This document shows positions 12,456-35,156 of a DNA stretch of 50,655 bases, piece by piece. Source of the DNA: Vicingaceae bacterium (GTDB lineage Bacteria > Bacteroidota > Bacteroidia > Flavobacteriales_E > Vicingaceae); NCBI GenBank assembly GCA_029251425.1, contig JAQXDJ010000072.1, forward strand, positions 1-50,655, given 5' to 3'. The notes under the pieces are model-generated. The model saw only the letters and a program-made list of their open reading frames with translations. It did no database searches and was not told the origin of the DNA. The position numbers were made by a program, and so were the translations under genes. The number at the start of each line of letters is the position of its first letter. Positions within the stretch are counted from its first letter, which is position 1.

Positions 12456-13667
12456 ATGAACATGAAATCAATACTCATAATCGCAATTTCATTTAGTAGC
12501 ATATTTTCATTTGGACAAACAAACTTAATACCTAATCCTGGTTTTGATAATTTTGCATCCTGTCCTACTAACATACATCAAGCTTATTTGCTAGATGATT
12601 GGTTTTATGTGCCTAGCCATTTTGGCACACCAGATTTATATGCAACATGCGGGGCAGCTGTAGTGAGCGTCCCAACTCATACAACTGGAACTCAGAACCC
12701 CCGAAGCGGAACTGCTTATGCTGGGCTTGTGGTCTACCCAAGCTCGTCTAGTCCTAACTACCGAGAATATTTACAAGTAAAGTTAACCTCTCCATTGGTT
12801 GCGGGTGAATCCTATGATGTATCGGCATGGGTTAACTTGAGAGATAATATCCTTAAAACATGTGATGGCTTTGGTTTTCATTTAACGACCTCAATAATTT
12901 CGAACGGTTCCACCTCTAGTGCATTTTCAATTTCTCCTTCTTTAGATAATACGACAACGATAGATAATCAAGCAGACTGGGTTCAAATTGGTGGGGTTTA
13001 TATTGCAACTGGGGGTGAAGAATACCTAACTATTGGTAATTTTAGGGATGACGCCAATACCAATCATAACTTTTTCTTTGGCTCGTCATATATATTTGTA
13101 GAAGATGTTTCTGTTGCTCTTGCTACTCCGCTGCCTGTAAAGTTAACTTATTTTGATGCGAATTGTCAAAATGACAATCCCAAACTATCTTGGGTAACTA
13201 GTTCTGAAATTAACAACGATTATTTTACGATTGAAAAAAGTGATGATGCAGTTAACTTTGAAGCTATAGCAACTGTAGAAGGGAATGGAAACAGTAGTAT
13301 TATAAATAACTACACTTGGACAGATGACTCTCCAATTAATGGAACAATATATTACCGTTTAAAACAAACAGACTTTAATGGAGCTTTTGAATACCTCGGA
13401 ATAAGAACTGTTACTTGTGAGCAAGCTACCGATATTAGTATTTATCCTAATCCGTTTGAAAACAGTTTTACCGTTCAGCTTTCAGACAACACCACTTACC
13501 CAATTACAATAGAAGTAATAGATTACTTGGGGAGAAAAGTGTATGAACAACAAGTGGAGACTACGATTACTGAAATTGAGTTAAACAATCTTCCGGCAGG
13601 AACTTATTTTATCAGAACATTTAACGAAACAACTCAAGTAGTTGAACGAATTGTTAAAACAAAGTAA
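12456..13667 (+). CDS. Secreted protein with T9SS type A C-terminal sorting domain
   Basis: 403 aa. Signal peptide and an N-terminal NLIPNPGFDNFASCP jelly-roll-like domain. Middle LTYFDA...LSWVTSSEINNDYFTIEKSDD...YYRLKQTDFNG module. C-terminal ISIYPNPFENSFTVQ...LPAGTYFIRTFN matches the Por secretion tail. Confidence 0.8.
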   Translation: MNMKSILIIAISFSSIFSFGQTNLIPNPGFDNFASCPTNIHQAYLLDDWFYVPSHFGTPDLYATCGAAVVSVPTHTTGTQNPRSGTAYAGLVVYPSSSSPNYREYLQVKLTSPLVAGESYDVSAWVNLRDNILKTCDGFGFHLTTSIISNGSTSSAFSISPSLDNTTTIDNQADWVQIGGVYIATGGEEYLTIGNFRDDANTNHNFFFGSSYIFVEDVSVALATPLPVKLTYFDANCQNDNPKLSWVTSSEINNDYFTIEKSDDAVNFEAIATVEGNGNSSIINNYTWTDDSPINGTIYYRLKQTDFNGAFEYLGIRTVTCEQATDISIYPNPFENSFTVQLSDNTTYPITIEVIDYLGRKVYEQQVETTITEIELNNLPAGTYFIRTFNETTQVVERIVKTK

Positions 13668-16811: not shown

Positions 16812-17867
16812 TCACCTAAAGGAAGCTCTTTGGAGTGCTTTATTTTGATGAATATATCGAATAGAAAACTCTATTCCGTTTGCTCCACCCGCTGATTTAG
16901 CCAAATCTGAATTGCTATAATCATAAGAAAATCCAATCATGTAATCTGTAAATTCCAAATAGATTTCAGGTATAATTGCATCTCCAACTCTGTAGTGTGC
17001 GCCAAAATAAATTGCAGCCTCTTTAAACATTCCTGAATATTTAGTTTCATGTCCTCTCCTAAATTTCAATAACATTCCTGGAGTAATCTCTTTTGAACTT
17101 GCCTGTGTTGCGTAAAAAACAGAAGGAACAAGAGATAATGGCACAAGCCCTAAGTCAAAAGTTCCAGAAAACTGCGCAACAATTTTCATAGGTAAATTAT
17201 CGGTTGTAAAAGCCAAAAATTCCTGAGCTGGTTCATTTAAATGATAACCTGCTACACCGACATTAAAGCTAGAAACATCTGAACTTAAAAATGATGTACC
17301 TTCAGTTTTAAATTCGTAAAAAACACCTGCTCCTAAATCTAAATATTGTGATGATCTTAACCCGTAAAGTTCGTTTGTTGCTAGCTGTGTATCAAATGCT
17401 AAACCATTATATTGATTACCCCAAGTTAAGGAACTTAAATTAACTGAATTTTGCCCTAATCCTGTTTGAATTCCTAAAGAAAATTTGTGTTGTTCCGAAA
17501 TTGGTAAAATTCCTGACACAGAAATACTTGTTTGTGAAGACCCAAAGTTTGAAGTGCCTGCCACATCATTATAAAAGTTCAACCCTAGCCCTAAATAAGC
17601 TCCTTGATTCCTTCTTCTTCCTTTCTTAAATCTAAGTGGCGCATCAAACGAAGCTGCATAAGTTCTAAAACCTTTACCTATTCCTGTCCATTGTGTTCTG
17701 TAGTTTAAAAATGCTCTAACATTACCTTCAAAAACACCGGTAGCTGCTGGATTAATTAATTGGGGGGTTTGTCCAAATTGAGAAAAATGAACATCTTGAG
17801 CAACTACTTTCATTGAAATAAATCCAACAAAAAGTAATACACTTCCTATTAATTTTATCTCTCGCAT
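16812..17867 (-). CDS. PorP/SprF family type IX secretion system membrane protein
   Basis: 351 aa. Signal peptide then the QDVHFSQFGQTPQLINPAATG signature of PorP/SprF, with a beta-barrel-like alternating pattern. Its start codon overlaps the upstream stop (TAATG). Confidence 0.85.
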   Translation of the reverse strand: MREIKLIGSVLLFVGFISMKVVAQDVHFSQFGQTPQLINPAATGVFEGNVRAFLNYRTQWTGIGKGFRTYAASFDAPLRFKKGRRRNQGAYLGLGLNFYNDVAGTSNFGSSQTSISVSGILPISEQHKFSLGIQTGLGQNSVNLSSLTWGNQYNGLAFDTQLATNELYGLRSSQYLDLGAGVFYEFKTEGTSFLSSDVSSFNVGVAGYHLNEPAQEFLAFTTDNLPMKIVAQFSGTFDLGLVPLSLVPSVFYATQASSKEITPGMLLKFRRGHETKYSGMFKEAAIYFGAHYRVGDAIIPEIYLEFTDYMIGFSYDYSNSDLAKSAGGANGIEFSIRYIHQNKALQRASFR

Positions 17868-20800
17868 TACCTCACTAAAGTTATGTCTCCTGATTTAGAT
17901 TCTGATTCTCCATCAATAAATTCAGCTCTAAGTTTATACATATAAATTCCAGAAACAGCTTTTTTTCCATTATAATTTCCATCCCAACCATTGTCTTTTG
18001 ATGAAGTTGAAAAAACACGTTCTCCCCAACGATTATAAATATCAAAAATTAGAGAGACTATATTGTTCCCATAGACTAATAATACATCATTAGCTCCATC
18101 TTCATTTGGTGAGAAAGCTTCAGGAACTCCTGCAAAATTTGGTATTTCTGGAACATAATTAGCCGTAATAACATCATCAAATGAAGCAACAAAACTTACG
18201 CTAGAGTTTGTATTAGATGGGGTTAATACATGATTGTTTGAAGTCCAATTCTCAAATAAGAAATCACTAATTGGAGTTTCCGTTAAATCGACTGTAGTTC
18301 CTGTTATGTATTTTTTTATAACAGATGTTGTTGTGAAACTATCATAAACAGAATTTGTATCTATATCAATTCTCCCCATAGTTATTGGGCTTACTCTAAA
18401 TTCAATATCAAAAGAATCTATTGGGAGAAAGTGTGCCACAATTGAATCAGCATCATCTATCAACACCTGTACTGTTGGACTATTAGCATTAACAATAAAA
18501 GCAGTATTGTTTGATGACCAATTACTAAACAAATACCCTGATTGTGGTGTCGCAACTAAATCAAGCACAGTGTTCTCTATAACATTTTCTGTATGACTAT
18601 ATGCAGCAGGAGTAACTCCATCTATAGAAATATTTCCACCAACAACTGGGTCAACATTAAATACTACAGCAAAAGTATCAATCTTCTCAAAATGAGCAAT
18701 AATCGTATCTGCAACACCTACTGTAATTGTTACAACAGAATCATTCGGACTAGGAGAAAAAGCAGTGTTATTTGAAGACCAATTTAAAAAAATATGTCCT
18801 GGTTTTGGAACTGGTATTAGTGTTTGCAAACTCGTATTAGGGTAAAACTGAGAATGACTATATACTGTTGGTGTAAACCCATTTATTGAAACATCTCCTC
18901 CCAAAACAGGATCAACATCATAAGTCATTTCAATTGTATCTCCAGACAATACATAATGAGCGACTACACTATCGGTTTGAGTAATCATTAACGAATTACT
19001 CGGGTTAGTAATAGCTGAATCCATCGCATGGTTAAATACTTCCCAATGATCAAATATAAAACCAGGGTTCTCTGATGCAGTAACTAAAATAGAAACCCCT
19101 CCAAAATAATTGCCTGAATAGGAATAGTTTGTTGGTGTTATAGAATTTACCTGTATATCTCCCGCTCCAACAGGAGTAACATTAACCTGCATTGGATAAG
19201 GTCCAGTTAAATTATAACAAGGTCCTAAGCCAGAACTCACACCGGCACATCTAGCATTAATAAAATTCCTCATATCTTGAACATTCTGTTGCCACTGAGT
19301 CATTGTACCTCCCCACCTTGCTATTTGACCAGGCATTTCGGGCGTAATGATATTTACTAAACTATCTAATACAGCAATCATGTTACCACACTCAAAAGTT
19401 GTATTAGAAAGATCAATATATCTAGAAATATAATATTGTTCAAAAACAGGATTATTCATTAAAGCATTTAAAATAACGGTATGACCTTGCCCGCCTGGAT
19501 TTGGCAAATTATCGATATTACATGGATCAGCATTCGGTGATGAACTTGGAATACCTGTATAATTAGTGTAATGATTAAATGTAGCATCCATATCCCATAA
19601 TGAATACCTCCATTTCAACTTACTCCCATTTGTATCTAAACCTCTCCACCAAGAAGTATTCCAGCTCAACATATCCTGATTTAGAATGTATGAGTTCAAC
19701 ACAAAATAATCTACTAAACTTTTCCATTTATATTGACTAGTGACATAGTTAAAGTTAGCTGGTATAGCCATATTATTAGTTTGAATGTAATTTAACAAAG
19801 CATTCCAATCATTTTGAGCATTAGGCGCTCCGTACTTTTGCCAAGTACCACCCCATGTTTTTAAATATTGTATATAATTGGGACTATCTGCAAATTGTTC
19901 ATCCTGTCCATAATAATAATCAAGAAAATCACTATCATCAACTTTTTCCCTTATTTCATAAACCCCCCAATACAATCCATTCATATACAAAATACATGAC
20001 TGATAAGTCCTTTCATCAAGATGTAAATCTCCGTTTTGAGATAATGCCTGCACATAAGGATCTCTAATATGTGCCCCACCAAGTTCCCCAGCATAATTAG
20101 CTCCAGGTGTTCCTTCGAAAGGATAATTATCGCTGGCTCCAGCTTTAAGAATAATTCTTTGAAACTTATCTCTAGTTTTATTTGCAAACAGTTGGTGCTT
20201 TAGAGCATAATTATACCCATACTGATCTTTCATAATAAAATCAACCCCTCTCTGAGGGTAAGCCCACGAGTCATTTCCGTGTTTATCATAATTCCCTGCG
20301 CCTTCAGTTTGCATTACTCCATTCTCATCAAAATATTCAATTGCGCCAGGAAAAGCATCAGTAAACGCATTCGGGTGTGTATCATTTATCAATCCAGATA
20401 TATCATTCCCACAAATAGAAACTACAGGAATACTATGTGAAGAATTTATAAAGTAAGTATTCGTCTCAATAAAGCTAGCAGGGATACTAGTTATGGAGCT
20501 AAAACACCTTGCCCTCAGTACGGTGGTCGCTGCAATATTAATTGGTGTCGAATATACAGGTGATGTGTTATTTGGTTCGGTTCCATCTACCGTATATCTA
20601 ATCGTAATATTTGGATCTGGTGATGAAATTGTTACAGACTGAGTCGAAGCATAAAAGCCAGCTGCAACATTAAAACTAGGGACAGTAGCATACTCTTGTT
20701 GAGCACCTAAATTAGCACTATTTGGAGTTGCGTTGGTAAAAACACTCCATGTTGAAGCACCATTAGTAGTTCTACCTCTCGAATGTAAATGTTGGTTTGG

Positions 20801-21211
20801 AATAATTGTTAAACTATCCAAAACATTAACACCTGCATCAGATAATATTATTTTCTCGTAACGTGTTTGTGTCCACTTAAAGTTAGTATGTATTTGATTT
20901 CCGGCAGCTACAATTCCTCTACCCGAACCAAACACCATTATATAACCACCAGCCGGTATAACTACACTACTTGGAATTTGAAATTTTGTTGGGTTTCCAC
21001 TTTTATCACTTATATAATATCCGTTTAAGTCTATTGCTCCAGTTGTTGTATTATAAAGCTCTACCCAATCTTCGCGTTCACCAAAAGAATCAGAAAAACC
21101 GGCAGCAGTAGAATTAGCACAAGAATATTCATTTATAACAACTTGAGCATCTACATCTTGAATAAACAAAGCAAGTAAAACACTTAAAAAACCCTTATAA
21201 AATCTGCCCAT
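17867..21211 (-). CDS. Large surface protein: lamin-tail domain (LTD) + chitobiase-C-like Ig + CotH kinase-family domain + 4 repeat modules + T9SS type B sorting domain
   Basis: 1114 aa. LTD motif VVINEYS...DWVELYNTTTGAIDLNGYYISD. The CotH-like core spans roughly aa 260-650. C-terminal AFSPNEDGANDVL...IYNRWGERVF...GWDGNYNGKKAVSGIYMYKL matches the gliding-motility/CHU_C type B CTD. Confidence 0.85.
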   Translation of the reverse strand: MGRFYKGFLSVLLALFIQDVDAQVVINEYSCANSTAAGFSDSFGEREDWVELYNTTTGAIDLNGYYISDKSGNPTKFQIPSSVVIPAGGYIMVFGSGRGIVAAGNQIHTNFKWTQTRYEKIILSDAGVNVLDSLTIIPNQHLHSRGRTTNGASTWSVFTNATPNSANLGAQQEYATVPSFNVAAGFYASTQSVTISSPDPNITIRYTVDGTEPNNTSPVYSTPINIAATTVLRARCFSSITSIPASFIETNTYFINSSHSIPVVSICGNDISGLINDTHPNAFTDAFPGAIEYFDENGVMQTEGAGNYDKHGNDSWAYPQRGVDFIMKDQYGYNYALKHQLFANKTRDKFQRIILKAGASDNYPFEGTPGANYAGELGGAHIRDPYVQALSQNGDLHLDERTYQSCILYMNGLYWGVYEIREKVDDSDFLDYYYGQDEQFADSPNYIQYLKTWGGTWQKYGAPNAQNDWNALLNYIQTNNMAIPANFNYVTSQYKWKSLVDYFVLNSYILNQDMLSWNTSWWRGLDTNGSKLKWRYSLWDMDATFNHYTNYTGIPSSSPNADPCNIDNLPNPGGQGHTVILNALMNNPVFEQYYISRYIDLSNTTFECGNMIAVLDSLVNIITPEMPGQIARWGGTMTQWQQNVQDMRNFINARCAGVSSGLGPCYNLTGPYPMQVNVTPVGAGDIQVNSITPTNYSYSGNYFGGVSILVTASENPGFIFDHWEVFNHAMDSAITNPSNSLMITQTDSVVAHYVLSGDTIEMTYDVDPVLGGDVSINGFTPTVYSHSQFYPNTSLQTLIPVPKPGHIFLNWSSNNTAFSPSPNDSVVTITVGVADTIIAHFEKIDTFAVVFNVDPVVGGNISIDGVTPAAYSHTENVIENTVLDLVATPQSGYLFSNWSSNNTAFIVNANSPTVQVLIDDADSIVAHFLPIDSFDIEFRVSPITMGRIDIDTNSVYDSFTTTSVIKKYITGTTVDLTETPISDFLFENWTSNNHVLTPSNTNSSVSFVASFDDVITANYVPEIPNFAGVPEAFSPNEDGANDVLLVYGNNIVSLIFDIYNRWGERVFSTSSKDNGWDGNYNGKKAVSGIYMYKLRAEFIDGESESKSGDITLVR
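18152..19198 (-). repeat. Four tandem ~85-90-aa domain repeats inside the CotH protein
   Basis: Each unit ends in a similar module: GFIFDHWEV...DSVVAHYV, GHIFLNWSSNNTAFSPSPNDSVVTITVGVADTIIAHF, GYLFSNWSSNNTAFIVNANSPTVQVLIDDADSIVAHF, DFLFENWTSNNHVLTPSNTNSSVSFVASFDDVITANYV (aa ~672-1020). Confidence 0.6.
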
Positions 21212-22696: not shown

Positions 22697-23719
22697 ATGG
22701 CAAAAGTTAGAGGTAACCTTTACATATTTTTAGTGCTCTTCAGCATTTCTTTTTCAGCATTTGGAAATGATAAAGAAGATGGTAAAACTTCTAACAAAGA
22801 TACTTTATCAGCCTTAGTGATTACTCCAAAAAATCCACTTTATAATAATATTTCAGATTTATCTGGGAATGAAATCATGCAACTTATTGATTCTATTTTA
22901 GAATTAGACGAAATTCCAAAAGGGTTGTTAAACGGGATTAATGATTATGCTGAAAGTAAACTTTTAGAGCATGATTATTATATTTCGCTCACCAATTATT
23001 ATGAAAATTCTGCAATTCCTTCCAACTCAACTTACGGAAAATGGGATACGAAAAGAGTTTCTCCCTATAGTGAAGATATTACAAAAAATGACACTTCATT
23101 AATTTTAACACTTACCGACACACAAAATAATTGCAATTTTGTAGCTCCCATTCAAGACCCTGTTATCACCTCTAATTTTGGATGGAGAAATGGGCGAAAT
23201 CATCATGGCATGGATTTAGACCTTCAGGTTTGGGATCCTGTTGTAGCTTCATTTGATGGTATGGTAAGAATTGCTCTCTTTCATCCTGGCTATGGAAGAG
23301 TTGTAATAATAAGACACTATAATGGTTTAGAAACTTTATACGCGCATTTACATCGATTTAAAGTTAAAACCGGAGATATTGTAGAGGCAGGTCAAGTCAT
23401 TGGACTTGGTGGCAGCTCTGGACAATCATCTGGGAGTCATTTACATTATGAAGTTAGATACAAAGGGAAACCCTTAAACCCAAAACACATTATTTCTTTT
23501 AAAGAAAATGCCCTAATTAGTGACTCTTTAAAGTTAGTTAAACACAAATGGAACTACTCAGCACTACCAATGGGGATAGAATATCATACCATACAAAAAG
23601 GTGACTTTATGTATAAAATTGCTGATACATATGGGATTACTGTTAACGAACTTTGTGAAATAAATGGTATAAGGCGAAACAAAACATTAATTGTTGGCCG
23701 AAAATTAAGAGTTAAGTAA
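22697..23719 (+). CDS. M23 family metallopeptidase with C-terminal LysM domain
   Basis: 340 aa. HHGMDL and GSHLHYEV zinc/catalytic motifs. LysM segment YHTIQKGDFMYKIADTYGITVNELCEINGI. Confidence 0.9.
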   Translation: MAKVRGNLYIFLVLFSISFSAFGNDKEDGKTSNKDTLSALVITPKNPLYNNISDLSGNEIMQLIDSILELDEIPKGLLNGINDYAESKLLEHDYYISLTNYYENSAIPSNSTYGKWDTKRVSPYSEDITKNDTSLILTLTDTQNNCNFVAPIQDPVITSNFGWRNGRNHHGMDLDLQVWDPVVASFDGMVRIALFHPGYGRVVIIRHYNGLETLYAHLHRFKVKTGDIVEAGQVIGLGGSSGQSSGSHLHYEVRYKGKPLNPKHIISFKENALISDSLKLVKHKWNYSALPMGIEYHTIQKGDFMYKIADTYGITVNELCEINGIRRNKTLIVGRKLRVK

Positions 23720-24048
23720 TGCTAAACATCCTCAACTATTCTGATCATCCAACTAGAGTTGGCTATACCGTTTATCGTTTTTTTGAAAAAGAACGAGCAG
23801 ACTATTTTGAAGAATTATTAATAAAAGAGAACGTTTCTTTTGAGTCTTCAATTGAAGAAAGTGGAAACACATTATATTTATTTGGAATTAAAAAAGGTGA
23901 TGCAAAAAAAGCAATGAACGCAAACTACTTGGTTAGTGCAAAATTCAGAAACAAAATAATTCCTAACACTTACTTTCGATGGGGAGTCATTCTTTTTGCA
24001 ATTACAATGATAACTATAGCAGTTATAGGAGCTATTCTTAAAACCTAA
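23719..24048 (+). CDS. Hypothetical tail-anchored membrane protein, translationally coupled to the M23 peptidase gene
   Basis: 109 aa. TAATG stop/start overlap with the upstream gene. Single C-terminal helix WGVILFAITMITIAVIGAIL. Confidence 0.5.
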   Translation: MLNILNYSDHPTRVGYTVYRFFEKERADYFEELLIKENVSFESSIEESGNTLYLFGIKKGDAKKAMNANYLVSAKFRNKIIPNTYFRWGVILFAITMITIAVIGAILKT

Positions 24049-25501
24049 ATCCTAAAGTGAAAGAAATATAATGATCTTTTAAATCTACTGTTGCAAATTC
24101 ACCCTGATCAGCAACTACTGAAGATTCTGCTTTAGAAAACCTTTGCAGATAAGACATATCAAAATAATAGTCTTCCTGCTTTATTCCAAATCCAACAGAG
24201 TATGTTGATGAACTATTATCTACATCAAAATTATTTTTTAACGGATCTCCTTGGTAGCGATAACCTGCTCTTAGTCTAAAAGGGTCCAACCTCCACTCTG
24301 TTCCTACTCTAATATTATGAGTTGATCTAAAATTATTTCGGATACTTCGATTTTCTACAGAAAAATCTGTAGTACCAAAAGCATTGTCTTCTGTTATTCT
24401 TGCCGTAGAATAATCTACAATTTCATAATCTCCATTTACAACACCATGGCTTCCAACAATAACAGCCGCGCTAGTTATAAAACGATAAGGTGTAGTAACC
24501 ATATACTCAAAATTACCTGACGGAGAAATTTCAGTAAGCACTTCTCCCGTTTTATCTTCAGAACTAACCGTTGTTGACCATTGATCCGATAATGAATATA
24601 CTGTTGGAGTATGAAAAGCAGTTCCTAACCTAAACCAGTCAGCAACTTTATAAATCATACCTAGTTTTAAATTCAACCCTGCTCCTGTGGTTTTCACGTA
24701 ATCATTAACCGAAAATGATTTAAACTCAGTAAGTGTATCAGAAGGGTCTGATGTTTCCGTGTAACTCCTATCAAAAACATATCTTACAGATGGCACGCCA
24801 ATCGAAGCCCCCAAATACAGCTTATCTGAATAATTAGAACCTAAAGCAAAATACATCTCTCCAGAGCCACCTCTAGTGTCATAACTTGTAGTTTGAGTAA
24901 TATTATTTGAGTTCTCAAAAACATGATTATACTGTAAAGATCCCGAATCTATAGGGTTTACTATATAAGTTTGATAAGCCAAATTTGATGAGAAAGGAAA
25001 TTCATAAGGGATGTCTTCTTCATATATACCACCGCTAGCATTCAATTCCAAGGTAAATGTATTTAACATAGAGTTATTCGTATTACTCTTTATAGAAATA
25101 CTAGTATTATAATTACTCAACCTATTATATCCTACAGCAAGATTTACCGCTTTCCAATCACCACTCCCTTTAAAATTTCCTGCAATACCAACATTTGAAA
25201 AATGAAAATTTAGCTTACCATCACTAACACTATTTCCATTTTTATTACTTTCTGAATAATTATAATGAAACGCTGGTGTAAACGAAAAATCTGAACTTTT
25301 GTAAACCCCTAGTCCTCCAGGATTAGTACTTATTGCAGATAAGTTTGCACCAAGCGCCCCAAAGGAACCTCCCATTGCGTTAAACCTTGCATCACCATAA
25401 TGATCAAGCTGAGAATACCTCAACACATCAAACTCATCTTGAGCAAACCCTTCGTTTGCAACAAAAACAATTCCCAAAACAAATAATAGTAAATACTTCA
25501 T
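24038..25501 (-). CDS. Outer-membrane beta-barrel protein, FadL/Toluene_X/PorV-like (family assignment tentative)
   Basis: 487 aa. Signal peptide MKYLLLFVLGIVFVANEGFAQ, N-terminal RYSQLDHYGDARFNAMGGSFGALGAN segment, amphipathic beta-strand pattern throughout, and a C-terminal ISFTLGFRF aromatic beta-signal. Confidence 0.6.
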   Translation of the reverse strand: MKYLLLFVLGIVFVANEGFAQDEFDVLRYSQLDHYGDARFNAMGGSFGALGANLSAISTNPGGLGVYKSSDFSFTPAFHYNYSESNKNGNSVSDGKLNFHFSNVGIAGNFKGSGDWKAVNLAVGYNRLSNYNTSISIKSNTNNSMLNTFTLELNASGGIYEEDIPYEFPFSSNLAYQTYIVNPIDSGSLQYNHVFENSNNITQTTSYDTRGGSGEMYFALGSNYSDKLYLGASIGVPSVRYVFDRSYTETSDPSDTLTEFKSFSVNDYVKTTGAGLNLKLGMIYKVADWFRLGTAFHTPTVYSLSDQWSTTVSSEDKTGEVLTEISPSGNFEYMVTTPYRFITSAAVIVGSHGVVNGDYEIVDYSTARITEDNAFGTTDFSVENRSIRNNFRSTHNIRVGTEWRLDPFRLRAGYRYQGDPLKNNFDVDNSSSTYSVGFGIKQEDYYFDMSYLQRFSKAESSVVADQGEFATVDLKDHYISFTLGFRF

Positions 25502-25523
25502 CTTTTCTTTTGCTTTTAATTAT

Positions 25524-26933
25524 CTATCGTCTTCTCCCTCCAGATGAAGATCTACTTCCGCTACTTCTTGATCCGCTACTTGGCCTACTCGTAGGTCTGC
25601 TAGCAGGACGAGTTCTTGTTGAGCTATTGCTCCTATTATAACTTCCACTAGGTCGGCTATAATTAGAACGTGTATTACTTTTTGGTTTAGTATAAGTGCT
25701 CTTCGGACGAGTAGTTGCTGTTCTTGTTCTAGAGTTATTATACGTGCTCCTTGGTTTTGTTGTTGAACTTGGCCTTGTAGTCGGGCGAGTTGTTCTAGTT
25801 GTAGTCGTTTTTGGACGAGTATAAGAATTTGTACGAGTAGTCCTAGTCGATTTTGTTGGATAAGAATTACTTCTAGTAGTTCTTGTTGGACTAGTACTCC
25901 CATTTGTTGTTCTAGTATTAGGGTATGTACTCCTTGTTGTAGGCCTAACTCCTCCAGTCCTAGTTGTATTTCTAGGATTAGAATACCCATTATTTCGAGT
26001 CGTTTCTCTTACCCCACCACTTCTAGTTGTATTTCTAGTGTTTGAATATCCTGAATTTCTAGTAGATCTTACCCCTCCGGTTCTTGTTGTACCATTAGAA
26101 TTATGATTTCTTACAGCCGCTTCATATTTCTGACCAAAAGATTTATGACCGCTAGTACTTTTTCTTCCTCCTCTAGTTCCATAACCTGAATAACTTGAAC
26201 TACGTCCTCTCTTACCATAATAATAACTATTTCTATCACGACTATTATAATAATTAGAAGCATATACATTCTGATTACCATAACCACCAAACCCATTTTG
26301 ATAATAAGCAGAAACATGGTTTCCATATACTCCGTGGTATCCAAAATTATAACCAGTTCCACAATAACCATAGTTCCCTGTATAGCCCCAGCCCCAATTC
26401 CATCCTAAAGACCACCCTCCATAATAAGACCATCCTATATTCCACCCTGAATAGTTTGGTCTCCACCAGTTGTAACTGGTATAAATACTTGTACCATAGT
26501 TGTAAGGGTTCTGATCATACCAATAATAGTTAGTATAACAATCATCATAATATCCAGCATTTACAGTTCCCCTTCTAAATCTTTTTATTCTTGAAGCGTA
26601 TTCATAATCATAATATTCGTTTTCGTAATCATAATTATCTCCATTATAATAGTTGTTTGTAATCTGAACATTTCCAAACTCATCTTCATAATAAGTAGTA
26701 CTATCTGATATACCCATTCTATTATTATATTCGGCTTCTTTCTCCTTTGCCCTACTATCTCTATAATAATCTGTTGCTGTAGAATACTCATCTTCAGACA
26801 AAACCTCCTCAGAAGTTCTATCAATTTCAAAATTTTTCTTTTTTGATGATGGATAAAAATCATCTTGTGCAGTAATATTTCCTGCAAGCCCTAAAAAGGC
26901 AATAAATAGTGTTATCTGGTTAATTCGTTTCAT
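25524..26933 (-). CDS. Secreted extreme low-complexity protein: acidic Tyr-rich head, aromatic/Gly/Asn core, basic Thr/Arg/Ser/Pro tail
   Basis: 469 aa. Signal peptide MKRINQITLFIAFLGLAGNITAQ and a strong SD (AAGGAGG) 7 nt upstream. This is the longest frame and the only one with a start context. Shorter ORFs in other frames are composition shadows. Confidence 0.7.
   Translation of the reverse strand: MKRINQITLFIAFLGLAGNITAQDDFYPSSKKKNFEIDRTSEEVLSEDEYSTATDYYRDSRAKEKEAEYNNRMGISDSTTYYEDEFGNVQITNNYYNGDNYDYENEYYDYEYASRIKRFRRGTVNAGYYDDCYTNYYWYDQNPYNYGTSIYTSYNWWRPNYSGWNIGWSYYGGWSLGWNWGWGYTGNYGYCGTGYNFGYHGVYGNHVSAYYQNGFGGYGNQNVYASNYYNSRDRNSYYYGKRGRSSSYSGYGTRGGRKSTSGHKSFGQKYEAAVRNHNSNGTTRTGGVRSTRNSGYSNTRNTTRSGGVRETTRNNGYSNPRNTTRTGGVRPTTRSTYPNTRTTNGSTSPTRTTRSNSYPTKSTRTTRTNSYTRPKTTTTRTTRPTTRPSSTTKPRSTYNNSRTRTATTRPKSTYTKPKSNTRSNYSRPSGSYNRSNSSTRTRPASRPTSRPSSGSRSSGSRSSSGGRRR
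25905..26087 (-). repeat. Three tandem 60-63-nt (20-21-aa) repeats inside the low-complexity gene
   Basis: Protein units are TRTGGVRSTRNSGYSNTRNT / TRSGGVRETTRNNGYSNPRNT / TRTGGVRPTTRSTYPNTRTT. On the plus strand the core CTAGTTGTATTTCTAG recurs exactly 63 nt apart (25960 and 26023), with a diverged third copy near 26083. More degenerate T/R/S/P periodicity continues to the stop. Confidence 0.65.
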
Positions 26934-26940
26934 AATATAT

Positions 26941-26947
26941 CCTCCTT
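26941..26947 (-). promoter_or_regulatory. Canonical Shine-Dalgarno sequence for the low-complexity gene
   Basis: The minus strand reads AAGGAGG-ATATATT-ATG (7-nt spacer). No comparable SD precedes any other start codon I inspected in this window. Confidence 0.55.
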
Positions 26948-26983
26948 AATTTTCTTTGTTAATGAAATGTTAAAAGTCATCTT

Positions 26984-27027: not shown

Positions 27028-27384
27028 TTAATGCCAAAAAGCAGCAATTAAAAACATTGTGTTTACAAACACATCTACTACTAATTCTGCTGTACCAGAA
27101 TTCCAAAAAACATTTCTCTTTCTGTTTTGGGAAATTGGCTCTTCATTATAAACTTCATCTCCATAATGAGTATTAAAATCGGTTGGCTCATTTAATTCCC
27201 TTATTTCATTTAAACGATTATAATCTTCTTCTGTTAGGTAGGTTTCAACAATAACACTATCAGCTTTAGAGAACTTTCTTTCCTTTTTTAAATTATCTTT
27301 TTCAAAATCAGATTGAGAAAAAACTTGACCAGCCGAAAAAAGAAGGAAAAGAAAGGGGAGTAAATATATTTTAATAGATTTCAT
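27028..27384 (-). CDS. Small secreted/anchored hypothetical protein
   Basis: 118 aa. Signal peptide IYLLPFLFLLFSAGQVFSQ, acidic Tyr-containing middle (TEEDYNRLNE...HYGDEVYNEEP) and C-terminal hydrophobic helix ELVVDVFVNTMFLIAAFW. Confidence 0.5.
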   Translation of the reverse strand: MKSIKIYLLPFLFLLFSAGQVFSQSDFEKDNLKKERKFSKADSVIVETYLTEEDYNRLNEIRELNEPTDFNTHYGDEVYNEEPISQNRKRNVFWNSGTAELVVDVFVNTMFLIAAFWH

Positions 27385-27471: not shown

Positions 27472-28950
27472 ATGGCTAAAAATTTCACATCAAGAGAAAA
27501 AGATTACTCACAATGGTACAATGAATTAGTTGTAAAAGCTGATTTAGCAGATCATTCAGCAGTAAGAGGTTGTATGGTAATTAAACCTTATGGCTATGCT
27601 AGTTGGGAAAAAATGCAAGCACAACTAGATAAAATGTTTAAGGAAACAGGTCATCAAAATGCTTACTTCCCTTTGTTTGTTCCGAAAAGCTTGTTTGAAG
27701 CAGAAGAAAAAAATGCAGAAGGTTTTGCCAAAGAATGTGCTGTAGTTACACATTACAGATTAAAAACCGACCCTGAAAACCCTGCAAAATTAATTGTTGA
27801 TCCAAATGCTAAATTAGAAGAAGAACTAATTGTTAGACCAACATCTGAAGCAATTATTTGGAACACTTACAAAGGATGGATTCAATCATACAGAGATTTA
27901 CCAATACTGGTTAACCAATGGGCAAATGTTGTTAGATGGGAAATGAGAACTCGTTTATTTTTAAGAACAGCAGAGTTTTTATGGCAAGAAGGGCATACAG
28001 CACACGCTACGAAAACTGAAGCAATTGAAGAGACCGAAAAAATGCTAGATGTTTATGCTGAATTTGCAGAAACATATATGGCTATGCCTGTTCTAAAAGG
28101 AATTAAAACTGCAAGCGAAAGATTTGCTGGAGCTGACGAAACTTATTGTATTGAAGCTTTAATGCAAGACGGGAAAGCACTACAGGCAGGAACCTCGCAC
28201 TTTTTAGGACAAAATTTTGCCAAAGCTTTTGATGTAAAATATGCCACTAAAGAAGGTAAACAAGAACATGTTTGGGCAACTTCTTGGGGAGTTTCTACCA
28301 GGTTAATGGGTGGTTTAATAATGACTCACTCTGATGATGATGGTTTGGTGCTACCTCCAAACTTAGCTCCTATACAAGTTGCTATTGTTCCTATTTATAA
28401 AGGAGAAGAACAATTGGCTCAAATCTCTGAACAAGTTGCTGTTATAAAAACTGAACTAGAAGCTAAAGGAATTTCTGTGAAGTATGATGATAGAGATACA
28501 CACAAACCAGGATTTAAATTTGCTGAATACGAATTTAAAGGTGTTCCTGTTAGATTGGCTATCGGACCAAGAGACATGGAAAACGGCACTATTGAAGTCG
28601 CAAGAAGGGATACTAAAGAAAAAGAAATTTTACAGCAACAAGATATTGCAGGGAAGATTGAACATTTATTAGAAAATATTCAAAACAATTTATTTCAAAA
28701 AGCAATAGATTTTAGAGAAGATCTAACTAATAAAGCTGATAATTGGGAAGAATTTAAAAACCTTATTGAAAATAAAACTGGATTTGTTGAAGCACACTGG
28801 GACGGAACTGCTGAAACAGAAGAGAAAATTAAGCAAGAAACTAAAGCTACGATCCGTTGTATTCCTCTAAACAATAAATTGGAAGAAGGAAAATGTGTTT
28901 ATTCAGGAAATCCATCTACACAACGCGTAGTTTTTGCCAAATCATACTAA
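27472..28950 (+). CDS. proS: Proline--tRNA ligase (archaeal/eukaryote-like class II type)
   Basis: 492 aa. N-terminal [14 protein letters not shown], class II motifs ([26 protein letters not shown]), a C-terminal zinc-binding-type domain, and it ends ...FAKSY. Confidence 0.95.
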
Positions 28951-28960
28951 CACACTTATT

Positions 28961-29644
28961 ATGGAAAATGCTAAAGATCTAATTATAGAAACGCTAAAAA
29001 CAAAAGCTTCTCTAAAGCAAGATGTTTTTAAGAAAACAAGAGACGTTTTTAAACTTTTTAAGATAGAAGCCGAAAAACTTGTAGAAGAGCTTAAAACTGA
29101 AATGGAACAAATTGATGAAAGAGTTATCATTGATTTTAGAGATAAAGGTGACTACGAGTTTCATATAAAATTTGGTGGAGATATTTTAGTTTTCTTTATG
29201 CATACTAATGTTTTTGATTTTGACAAAAACCACCCTATCTGGAAAACATCCTATTTAAAAGAGGATGAATTAAAAGCTTATTGCGGTTTAATTAACGTTT
29301 ACAATTTCTTAGCAGATTCATTCAAGTACAACCGATTAAACGACCTTGGCTATTTAGTTGCCAGATTCTTTCTAAACAAAGAAGACCATTACTTTGTTGA
29401 AGGAAAAAGACAGCTTGGTTTTTTATATAATGACTTTATAAATGAAACAATTAACAACGATAAAATCAGAAATATTATAGAATCTTCAATGTTATATTCT
29501 ATGGATTTTGATTTACTAACGCCAAGTTACGAAACCATGCAAAACGTTAGTGTACATGAAGTTAACGAAGTAACAAGTGCTATGAGTATAAAAACAGGCA
29601 AACGACTTGGATTTAAATTTGAAGCAGATAATGATATTATATAA
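28961..29644 (+). CDS. Conserved hypothetical protein
   Basis: The track ORF starts at 28934 and overlaps the proS end. The MENAKDL start at 28961 avoids that overlap. It is a soluble, helical-looking protein and I recognise no family. Confidence 0.5.
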   Translation: MENAKDLIIETLKTKASLKQDVFKKTRDVFKLFKIEAEKLVEELKTEMEQIDERVIIDFRDKGDYEFHIKFGGDILVFFMHTNVFDFDKNHPIWKTSYLKEDELKAYCGLINVYNFLADSFKYNRLNDLGYLVARFFLNKEDHYFVEGKRQLGFLYNDFINETINNDKIRNIIESSMLYSMDFDLLTPSYETMQNVSVHEVNEVTSAMSIKTGKRLGFKFEADNDII

Positions 29645-29721: not shown

Positions 29722-29793
29722 GGCCCGTTCGTCTAGGGGTTAGGACGTCTGGTTTTCATCCAGGAAACAGGGGTTCGATTCCCCTACGGGCTG
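29722..29793 (+). tRNA. tRNA-Glu (anticodon UUC)
   Basis: Manual cloverleaf. Acceptor GGCCCGT/ACGGGCT (one G-U pair). D-arm GTCTAGGGGTTAGGAC closely resembles E. coli tRNA-Glu. Anticodon stem TCTGG/CCAGG with loop TTTTCAT (TTC). T-arm AGGGG-TTCGATT-CCCCT. The CCA is not encoded. Confidence 0.92.
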
Positions 29794-29803
29794 CACAAAA
29801 AAA

Positions 29804-33836: not shown

Positions 33837-34056
33837 ATATTTTGGAATGACTGCTGAAGGTTCTGGGAAAACTGAAGAATCAGTTCATTCTAATTATTCA
33901 TCAATTGCTGAGTTAAAAAAAGATATCATCAATAAACATCCTAAACTAGAAAAAATAAACTTTAAGATAGCGGCAAATCAAACCATTGTTAATGAAGATT
34001 ATTTATTGTCTGGAGATGAAGAAATAGCCTTGTTACCACCATTTGCAGGAGGATGA
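33820..34056 (+). CDS. moaD: Molybdopterin synthase sulfur-carrier subunit
   Basis: 78 aa. Ubiquitin-like size, and it ends in the diagnostic ...LPPFAGG. Confidence 0.8.
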   Translation: MTLTIKYFGMTAEGSGKTEESVHSNYSSIAELKKDIINKHPKLEKINFKIAANQTIVNEDYLLSGDEEIALLPPFAGG

Positions 34057-35156
34057 ATTTAACAGATCAAGAAAAAAATAGATACAGCAGACACATCTCT
34101 CTTAAAGAGGTCGGATTATCTGGGCAAGAAAAATTAAAAGCTGCCAAAGTGTTAATTATTGGCGCTGGTGGTCTGGGCTGCCCTGCACTACAATATTTAA
34201 CAGCGGCAGGTATTGGAACTATTGGTATTATTGATTTTGATACAGTTGATGAAACCAATTTACAACGTCAGATTTTGTTTACTGTAAATGATATCGGAAC
34301 TAATAAAGCCACTGCTGCAAAAAAGCGCTTAATTCAATTAAATCCTAACGTAAATTTTAACGTTTACACCGATAAGTTAACAACAAAAAATGCCTTATCA
34401 CTTTTTAATAATTATGATGTTATAGTTGATGGAACCGATAATTTTTCTACTCGTTACTTAATTAATGATGCAAGTGTCATTACCAACAAACCACTAGCAT
34501 ATGGTGCTATTTATAAATTTGAAGGACAAGTAACTGTTTTCAATCATAACAATGGACCAAGTTATAGGTGTTTGTTTCCTGAACCTCCAAAAGCAGGAAG
34601 CGTACCCAATTGTTCTGACATTGGTGTTATTGGAGTTTTACCAGGCTTAATAGGTACCCAACAAGCTAACGAAGTTTTAAAACTGATTTTAGAAATAGGA
34701 AATCCTCTTTCTGGAAAATTGCTCACATACAATGCTTTAGACAATTCATCTTTAACATTAAATGTGCCCAGATCTGAAGAAGAAATAGAAAAAATAAAAA
34801 GTGATAATTTTAGTTTTGAAACAATGGATTATGACTTTTTTTGCGGTCTATTAAAACAAGAAAAAATGAAAGAAATATCAATAGAGGACTTAAAAAAATG
34901 GTATGAAGAGTCGAAAGATTTTCAAGTAATTGACGTAAGAGCAGACTGGGAACTACCTAGAATTAATAAAGAAAATGTAGTGGTAATTCCGTTAGACGAA
35001 TTACAAAATGGTATTCCTAAAATATCTAAATCAAAAGATGTTGTAGTTATTTGTCAGCATGGTGTGAGGAGCAAGTTTGCAATTGAAGCATTAGAGCGAG
35101 AATACAACTTTACAAATTTAATTGACCTCTCAGAAGGGGCAGCAAATTGGAAATAA
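34053..35156 (+). CDS. moeB: Molybdopterin-synthase adenylyltransferase (ThiF/MoeB fold) fused to a C-terminal rhodanese domain
   Basis: 367 aa. RYSRHI, GAGGLGCP and the CxxC pair region. The C-terminal rhodanese has the active-site loop CQHGVRS. Confidence 0.85.
   Translation: MNLTDQEKNRYSRHISLKEVGLSGQEKLKAAKVLIIGAGGLGCPALQYLTAAGIGTIGIIDFDTVDETNLQRQILFTVNDIGTNKATAAKKRLIQLNPNVNFNVYTDKLTTKNALSLFNNYDVIVDGTDNFSTRYLINDASVITNKPLAYGAIYKFEGQVTVFNHNNGPSYRCLFPEPPKAGSVPNCSDIGVIGVLPGLIGTQQANEVLKLILEIGNPLSGKLLTYNALDNSSLTLNVPRSEEEIEKIKSDNFSFETMDYDFFCGLLKQEKMKEISIEDLKKWYEESKDFQVIDVRADWELPRINKENVVVIPLDELQNGIPKISKSKDVVVICQHGVRSKFAIEALEREYNFTNLIDLSEGAANWK

Follow-up and report, generated by a model that had tools for sequence, protein, structure and literature searches.

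The gene at positions 25524..26933 (-) of a 50,655-nt contig from a Vicingaceae bacterium (assembly GCA_029251425.1, contig JAQXDJ010000072.1; the whole contig is referred to here as the window) encodes an exported protein of 469 aa that is rich in Tyr, Thr, Ser, Arg, Gly and Asn (ATG start, stop codon 25524-25526). It is near-certain that this gene, the target of the present analysis, and the barrel gene that follows it form a two-gene outer-membrane module, consisting of an exported partner protein and a FadL-type barrel, which is found in many lineages of Bacteroidota. The target had previously been interpreted from its sequence alone, without the neighbouring genes being considered, and the FadL-family barrel operon overlooked in that sequence-only reading is the strongest functional lead that was obtained. 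The interpretation favoured here, which we place just short of an even chance, is that the target is a periplasm-facing accessory subunit of its own dedicated FadL-type barrel and carries a disordered tether.

The partner gene (24038..25501 (-), 487 aa) lies 22 nt past the stop codon of the target and encodes an outer-membrane barrel of the FadL/OmpP1/TodX family. Its product matched the Pfam model Toluene_X (PF03349) at 2.6e-7 with 29.9 bits, against a cutoff of 29.7, and the same model was matched by eight of 15 barrel orthologues (best 1.3e-14). A profile search of the PDB with the barrel identified TbuX (3bry, 5.5e-7). The AlphaFold2 (AF2) model of the barrel had a predicted local distance difference test score (pLDDT) of 80.8 and a predicted template modelling score (pTM) of 0.77, with low confidence in the hatch region at residues 21-66. 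When this model was compared with known structures using Foldseek (overall E = 1e-17 to 1e-10, template modelling score about 0.5-0.65), the top matches were the BamG chains 9hiv_F, 9n2d_B and 9hjm_F, from the β-barrel assembly machinery (BAM) complexes of Bacteroides thetaiotaomicron, Flavobacterium johnsoniae and Porphyromonas gingivalis, followed by Escherichia coli FadL and TodX. As modelled, the partner is a 14-strand barrel of the FadL family with an N-terminal hatch segment. The candidate assignment of the barrel as a BamG orthologue was rejected, the identity in the structural alignment being 13-15%. Searches of the PDB with the barrel sequence, either singly or as a profile, gave no match to BtBamG, FjBamG or PgBamG, and at the sequence level the barrel appears as a separate FadL paralogue, not BamG. 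Its N-terminus, read by eye from the sequence, aligned with the FadL hatch with only about four extra residues.

The pairing of the two genes was constant among related loci. The order proS (divergent), target and co-oriented barrel was found in 77 of the 77 loci in which both genes were recovered, with target-barrel intergenic gaps that were mostly 12-60 nt and typically about 30 nt. A gut-type cluster from Bacteroidales, with 516 member sequences, and the cultured Plebeiibacterium marinum (WP_301198021.1) also had this order. Loci were collected by scanning one genome per GTDB species, which gave 218 species-level genome matches, a lower bound owing to the two search patterns used; 80 loci were kept for locus comparisons, with titles that included Vicingaceae, other Flavobacteriales, Bacteroidales, Sphingobacteriaceae, Chitinophaga and others. 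The nearest genome relative of the window was a locus (L001) from a Flavobacteriales metagenome-assembled genome (MAG), with 64% identity, and the clade to which both belong includes Vicingus. A full-length, intact target ORF was present in 79 of the 80 related loci. This conservation of the reading frame among relatives, together with the signal peptide read in the sequence, bears out the earlier proposal that the gene encodes a real exported protein.

A word-indexed search recovered 88 homologues of the target, every one of which was named 'hypothetical', so that the earlier interpretation is not overturned by a function already assigned to homologues. When residues 23-290 were used in an exhaustive phmmer search, 441 clusters at 50% identity reached E <= 1e-3, of which 174 also reached E <= 1e-10. 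No family match was obtained when the target and 61 homologues were scanned against Pfam and NCBIfam (Pfam thresholds E <= 0.1 for the window protein and E <= 0.01 for the homologues). The aromatic zone of the protein had been loosely likened to W-x-x-G-x-W and GYG-type repeats; neither the window protein nor the 61 homologues matched the WXXGXW / YXWGXW model PF12779. A profile search of the PDB with the target returned only low-complexity, Ser-rich false matches (for example mL77 and Abl interactor 2) and no relative. Our search of the literature found no paper on the target family, the BAM papers being the only ones to surface as context.

The predicted export signal and the three compositional zones described previously were confirmed. 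Residues 1-22 (26868..26933 (-)), read from the sequence, form a signal peptide, MKRINQITLFIAFLGLAGNITA, which is followed by QDD, with a predicted signal peptidase I (SPI) cut between A and Q. The predicted mature N-terminus of the target is therefore QDDFYPSS, and AQDD was invariant across the close clade. Gln at +1 after cleavage is the Bacteroidetes 'Q-rule', which the target cut site fits. The acidic, Tyr-rich head (residues 23-112, 26598..26867 (-)) contains 9 K+R and 24 D+E residues (pI 4.1, 20% aromatic), and carries the N-terminal DDFY motif (26853-26864 (-)) and a D-S-T glyco-sequon (26697-26705 (-)). The aromatic W/Y/G/N core (residues 113-243, 26205..26597 (-)) is 31% aromatic, 9% aliphatic and 31% Gly+Asn, with a pI of 9.2. 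It is flanked by the motifs YYDYEYASRIKRF (26577-26615 (-)), which begins inside the head, and YYNSRDRNSYYYGKR (26208-26252 (-)). The basic Thr/Arg/Ser/Pro tail (residues 244-469, 226 aa, 25527..26204 (-)) has 49 K+R and 2 D+E residues, a pI of 12.0 and 67% S/T/P/N/G/Q. Its acidic residues are E271 and E309; E309 is the single one from TRTGGVRS (residue 283) to the end, as had been noted.

Other features of the tail were the conserved short helix FGQKYE (26121-26138 (-)), the C-terminal GGRRR (25527-25541 (-)) and a 21-aa unit, GGVR..T(T)RN.GYSN.RNTTR, that occurs three times in a row in diverged form (25893-26078 (-); GGVRSTRNSGYSNTRNTTRS / GGVRETTRNNGYSNPRNTTRT / GGVRPTTRSTYPNTRTT...). The 21-aa repeat was invisible as a DNA tandem repeat, and Tandem Repeats Finder (TRF) found no repeat array in the target gene. 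Over the whole protein, T65, S62, Y55, R53, G49 and N48 compared with L5, M2 and C2, and a charge-hydropathy estimate placed the head, the core and the tail each on the 'disordered' side of the boundary. Overlapping ORFs of 84-156 aa (25520-25990(-), 26111-26371(-), 26585-26887(-) and 25387-25641(+)) were rejected as frame artefacts of low-complexity coding sequence; the other-frame ORFs across the target gene encode Leu/Ile/Val/Gln-rich nonsense.

The three zones differed in how they are conserved. Each zone of the window protein was aligned to the same zone of 13 homologues and the alignments were compared with those of 200 composition-preserving shuffles. The core gave z values of 15-43, including for the most distant lipoprotein homologues (about 30% overall identity). 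The head gave values of about 30 in the close clade and 1-4 in distant homologues, and the tail 0.3-8, except in L001, the closest relative (z = 21.6). Conservation of the core is thus positional, whereas that of the tail is limited to character and composition. Because the frame is intact in 79 of the 80 loci and the core aligns at z = 15-43, the target goes beyond chance and compositional noise, and it represents a genuine conserved gene family.

Fifty-eight columns were invariant among 19 relatives, nearly all of them within the first 270 residues. The conserved motifs in these relatives were QDDFYPS, YSTATDYY, ITNNYY, EYYDYEY.SRI.RF, YYD.CYTNYYWY, WW.P, NYYNS.D.NSYYYG.R and FG.KYE. Across the family, the motifs at or around the core took the forms (D/E)(D/E)xYY, DDYYDYEYxxRIRRF, YYDxYYTNxYWY..PYxYG, YYNSYDxNSYYYGxR and FGxKYE; the (D/E)(D/E)xY motif was family-wide, unlike the rest of the head. 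Homologues also kept the head-core-tail order while varying in length, as the sequence-only reading had envisaged, with tails of 155-298 aa (62 homologues). Constant properties of the tail across the family were a hydrophilic, Pro/Ser/Thr/Asn-rich and net-basic composition and an Arg-rich C-terminus of the form (S/G)n-G-R-R/K-(P)-R or G-G-x-R-R/K-(P)-R; the final residue was Arg in 126 of 138 homologues, and 93% had at least two K/R among the last four residues. The window tail is Thr/Arg-rich, whereas the tails of its relatives are rich in Lys/Pro/Tyr/Ser (..KP.TYSKP..), and tail composition therefore turns over rapidly.

The AF2 model of the target, built from a 61-sequence alignment, had a mean pLDDT of 49.9 and a pTM of 0.24. 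It contained only short elements (a helix at residues 54-73 and a hairpin at residues 80-92, both in the head, and helices at residues 109-117 and 266-277), with a pLDDT of about 35 in the core and about 45 in the tail. Foldseek with this model gave no match, such a search being meaningless on a model of this kind. The core is thus predicted, from the model, to have no independent fold. The low-complexity tail is almost certainly disordered, in agreement with the earlier proposal, because its pLDDT was about 45 and its conservation is compositional only. Wimley-White interfacial energies over residues 151-190 of the core were -7.5 to -9.8 kcal/mol per 19-residue window, and those of the head and tail were strongly positive.

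The core was also less diverged than the barrel, the mean distances being 0.44 and 0.56, respectively. Pairwise distances of the core and the barrel were correlated (r = 0.91), and remained so after controlling for proS (0.71), compared with a correlation of 0.26 between the core and proS given the barrel. The correlation between core and barrel distances weakly supports co-evolution of the two. The sequence-only reading had loosely compared the aromatic-Gly zone to prion-like or phase-separating domains and taken it for a sticker region; the 58 invariant columns, the z values of 15-43 and the lower divergence than that of the barrel speak against this. From its position-conserved sequence, the core is probably a barrel- or membrane-docking domain rather than a generic sticky or phase-separating protein. 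It upsets the split by which conserved sequences are folded and low-complexity sequences drift, as it is aromatic-rich and predicted to be unstructured, yet more conserved than the barrel.

The location of the protein was assessed from its export signals. The window clade has an SPI site between A and QDDFY, and the majority of the distant homologues have a lipobox Cys there instead. In all, 71 homologues were flagged as having a lipobox, a few of these flags being false positives from the SPI-type clade; 69 of the 71 had no acidic residues at +1 to +6 after the Cys, and the remaining two had one each. The presence of at least two acidic residues at that position marks surface-exposed lipoproteins of Bacteroidota (PMC12578637). 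The lipoprotein homologues should stay on the periplasmic face because, under this rule, the acidic surface-export signal is absent. In most homologues flagged for a lipobox, the (D/E)(D/E)xY motif lay 9-13 residues past the lipid Cys (median 11); in the window's clade it is located right at the mature N-terminus.

In the favoured reading, the target would remain at the periplasmic face of the outer membrane. There the N-terminal motif and the aromatic core would bind to the barrel, to the inner-leaflet membrane interface or to both of these, and would become ordered only once docked; folding on docking would explain why these parts are strongly conserved although no fold is predicted for them. 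The tail, in an extended form, would reach into the periplasm as a flexible tether, where the terminal Arg cluster might conceivably touch an anionic partner, such as peptidoglycan or an inner-membrane lipid or protein. In this way the module could connect the cell envelope with a FadL-type channel or anchor.

Several points weigh against this reading. FadL barrels with canonical N-termini normally transport hydrophobic molecules without a partner, and the role given to the tail and its Arg terminus is a guess. Membrane attachment is assumed for the window clade, which has no lipid anchor. The rule by which the lack of an export signal indicates a periplasmic location is empirical, and the barrel itself could export the target. 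The correlation between core and barrel distances may just mirror similar rate regimes of envelope proteins. Taxonomic labels of the loci are mostly MAG-derived and were treated with caution, and a hunt for orthologues in model organisms using a Bacteroidales homologue returned only MAG 'hypothetical proteins'.

A reading that overlaps with the accessory-subunit model is that the target handles, in the periplasm, the substrate of a genuine FadL transporter, which would import or export a hydrophobic or aromatic compound or lipid, the W/Y domain binding the substrate where it leaves the barrel on the periplasmic side or at the membrane interface and the tail passing it on across the periplasm. 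Among proteins of known structure, the toluene channel TbuX is nearest to the barrel in sequence, the barrel's fold is as near to FadL and TodX as to BamG, and its N-terminus aligns by eye with the FadL hatch, with the four or so extra residues already mentioned; the core, in addition, is predicted to lie at the membrane interface. However, we know of no FadL system that needs such a partner, the aromatic/Gly/Asn domain has no predicted pocket and no known lipid- or aromatic-binding fold, and the conserved neighbourhood has no catabolic or lipid-metabolism genes. We regard substrate handling as unlikely.

The sequence-only reading had instead proposed a secreted, disordered block polyampholyte that is self-coacervating or adhesive, serving as a surface glue, binding extracellular DNA, lipopolysaccharide or polyphosphate, or forming a scaffold for mineral or matrix. 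The window protein indeed has blocks of pI 4.1, 9.2 and 12.0 and a composition on the disordered side, AF2 predicts nearly no structure, the tails of relatives carry mussel-foot-like KP..Y.KP repeats and, for the tail only, composition is kept while order drifts (z = 0.3-8 outside the closest relative). The block charges, however, varied across the family: among the 62 homologues, the net charge of the head ranged from -1 to -24 and that of the tail from +1 to +48, and the tails of distant clades were Pro-rich polyampholytes with, for example, 25 positive and 18 negative residues. The strong contrast between acidic head and basic tail is an elaboration of the clade to which the window belongs. 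Opposite charges on head and tail are therefore not a trait of the family, since these charges vary so widely among homologues. Moreover, the core is conserved by position rather than by composition and evolves more slowly than its barrel partner, and the pairing with a FadL-type barrel is left unaccounted for. Most homologues are lipoproteins without a surface-export signal (the 69 of 71 described above), which makes a surface glue unlikely as a general role. Taken as a whole, this proposal seems to us distinctly improbable.

A secreted fibre or functional-amyloid subunit, its N/G/Y/W core exported unfolded via, or with help from, the barrel and assembled extracellularly in the manner of curli or Fap, would suit the N/G/Y-rich composition with GW..GW and GYN.GYWN-type repeats, the lack of a monomer fold and the adjacent gene for an outer-membrane barrel. 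The core is nevertheless mostly unique, ordered sequence in which TRF finds no array, and it showed no amphipathic β signature, aromatic i,i+2 spacing not being enriched (z = -0.6). In most lineages the protein is anchored as a lipoprotein and has no export signal. Neither Pfam nor NCBIfam gave a match to the CsgA or Fap families, and there were no nucleator or chaperone genes nearby, the neighbours being proS, the FadL-like barrel, an M23 peptidase and small ORFs. To our knowledge, a hatch-bearing 14-strand FadL barrel is not a polypeptide conduit either, and we consider an amyloid subunit very unlikely.

It is scarcely credible that the target is a type IX secretion system (T9SS) cargo with a cognate PorP/SprF-like anchor barrel, even though the layout is like that of a CotH/CHU_C and PorP/SprF cargo-barrel pair elsewhere in the window, from which it follows that the organism has a T9SS: neither the target nor its 61 homologues had a T9SS sorting domain of type A or B (Por_Secre_tail, CHU_C) in a search that did pick up such domains elsewhere among the window proteins, and the barrel falls outside PorP/SprF (PorV_fam was sub-threshold, 30.5 bits against a cutoff of 90). 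The pair in question, at 16812-21211 (-), comprises a protein of 1114 aa, in which a CotH kinase domain, a lamin-tail domain and a CHU_C domain (type-B T9SS sorting) were identified, and, directly after it, the PorP/SprF barrel. A 403-aa protein encoded at 12456-13667 (+) had, as its sole Pfam match, a C-terminal Por_Secre_tail, the type-A T9SS sorting domain.

The leader of the target gene also proved to be conserved. A Shine-Dalgarno (SD) site, AAGGAGGA (26940..26947 (-)), places GGAGG 7 nt ahead of the ATG, in agreement with the earlier description. GGAGG with a spacer of 5-9 nt, nearly always 7, before an in-frame start codon was found in 35 of 79 related genes, compared with one of 248 other ORFs in the same loci; the loci that bear it were L001-L023, L025, L029-L032, L037, L042-L044, L054 and L059, two Bacteroidales loci included. 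The window contains 12 AGGAGG sites, which is the chance level, and that of the target is the only one to sit 8-13 nt before a start codon. A second AGGAGG (34047-34055 (+)) abuts, without a spacer, the ATG of a 367-aa ORF (34053-35156); it is probably coincidental, unless the true start codon of that ORF lies elsewhere. Ribosomes of Bacteroidia sequester their anti-SD and are 'blind' to SD sequences, and in Flavobacteriales rpsU is reported to be virtually the sole strong-SD gene and to be translated preferentially by ribosomes without bS21 (PMC9976891, PMC13000453, PMC7797042). The conserved SD of the target hints at rpsU-like translational control in the window's clade, and the target may be translated by bS21-free ribosomes. 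The site is a natural reporter candidate for SD-dependent translation in SD-blind ribosomes.

Upstream of the SD lies a leader motif, TTAACATTTCATTAACAA (26956..26973 (-)), with two copies of TTAACA 11 nt apart. It recurred in many close relatives, and the SD-less clade (L024-L040) has a different, A-rich leader. The search of the window with Rfam found nothing in the leader; its only match was a single tRNA, a tRNA-Glu (anticodon TTC) at 29722-29794 (+), which was the sole Rfam or ARAGORN match in the window. The promoter-like elements that had been cited in support of the gene did not hold up, since a scan for sigma-70-like promoters gave 15 sites against 14.4 expected, with a consensus that does not fit Bacteroidota.

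A 118-aa ORF (27028..27384 (-)) upstream of the target encodes a signal peptide and a mature N-terminus homologous to the target head, followed by a C-terminal hydrophobic helix (...NTVFIIAAFWH). It shares the motifs Q[DN]DFY... and Y.TE.DY, and its alignment to the target family with hhalign (probability 97.7%, E = 1.6e-12, 55 columns) covered the first ~57 residues of the target. The ORF was found only in close relatives, where it co-occurred with the SD. Judged by this homology, it looks like a partial duplicate of the head of the target. As it repeats just the N-terminal module, that module is suggested to have a function of its own.

On the other side of the module, the gene of an M23 peptidase that carries a LysM domain and a membrane ORF of 109 aa (22697-24048 (+)) are convergent with the barrel gene, an arrangement conserved solely in the close clade, and the M23/LysM neighbour is a possible candidate for a link between the module and peptidoglycan. 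A 236-aa ORF (28934-29644 (+)) that overlaps the end of proS had no Pfam or NCBIfam match. Most related loci, in different orders, keep it beside proS (45-82% identity), and its product seems to be a cytoplasmic protein, so far uncharacterised, with a link to proS.

A bolder interpretation, possible but on balance doubtful, is that the pair represents an unrecognised kind of module. The target would then contain a non-globular domain of about 130 aa, W/Y/G/N-rich and conserved in its order, that becomes structured only on its own barrel or at the membrane interface, together with a cationic tether ending in an invariant Arg motif, and would be distinct from BamGH, PorV and PorP; through its SD it would also be, in the Vicingaceae-like clade, the second client after rpsU of bS21-free 'specialised' ribosomes. 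The gene pair is widely conserved beside a housekeeping gene, and no annotation, domain family, structure or literature was found for it. Unexpected outer-membrane machinery has recently been uncovered in Bacteroidota in the form of a BAM complex with a FadL-like subunit (PMC12578637, PMC12611786). A solved complex of the target and its barrel could reveal a new way for a barrel to recognise its partner or for a protein to recognise the membrane, and could assign a function to a third class of FadL paralogues in Bacteroidota.

Systems of several known kinds resemble parts of the module. In Lpp, LpoB, RcsF and TonB, long unstructured or Pro-rich segments cross the periplasm or a barrel; Lpp ends in a Lys that is cross-linked to peptidoglycan, and TonB is anchored in the inner membrane. 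The target family would resemble them in an N-terminal outer-membrane lipid anchor (in most homologues), a long extended Pro/Ser/Thr-rich segment and a conserved basic C-terminus, but they have no sequence relationship to the target and no aromatic W/Y/G/N domain. A tether of the Braun-lipoprotein type, cross-linked through a C-terminal Lys, was considered and rejected, given the C-terminal Arg in 126 of 138 homologues and the lack of a lipobox in the window protein. Pairs of a type-B T9SS cargo and a PorP/SprF barrel, such as SprB-SprF and the pair at 16812-21211, have the same layout, an exported protein followed by its own 14-strand-type barrel; they differ in that the target has no sorting domain and the window barrel is outside the PorP/SprF family. 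The FadL, TodX and TbuX channels resemble the barrel in its Toluene_X match, its profile match to TbuX and its superposition on FadL and TodX, but these channels work alone, and we know of none with an obligatory co-encoded aromatic-rich partner.

A compositional likeness, with no homology claimed, exists between the core and extracellular loop 3 of BamA in Bacteroidota, a Tyr/Gly/Asn-rich loop of 38 residues that is invisible in structures (PMC12578637); unlike the core, it is a loop within a barrel protein and lies on the extracellular side.

The closest precedent is BamG-BamH, in which BamG, a FadL-type barrel, grips the conserved N-terminus of the partner lipoprotein BamH, and in which a single operon holds BamG2 and BamH2 (PMC12578637, PMC12611786). 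BamH, a lipoprotein displayed on the surface, is folded and carries an acidic export signal and a CBM-like (carbohydrate-binding module) domain, whereas the target has no such signal and no predicted fold and has a disordered tail of about 200 aa. The target was rejected as a BamH-like surface lipoprotein, as the window protein has an SPI site and no CBM-like two-domain fold (pLDDT 49.9, pTM 0.24). The window barrel likewise differs from BamG, with which it shares 13-15% identity, in that, as read by eye, it does not have BamG's N-terminal extension of 10-12 residues. In both systems, however, a 14-strand barrel of the FadL family is combined with a dedicated partner, a lipoprotein in BamH and in most homologues of the target; the window barrel and the target both have strongly conserved N-termini, and BamG chains were the top structural matches of the barrel model. 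The target family itself is uncharacterised, although a barrel with a dedicated partner is a known kind of system.

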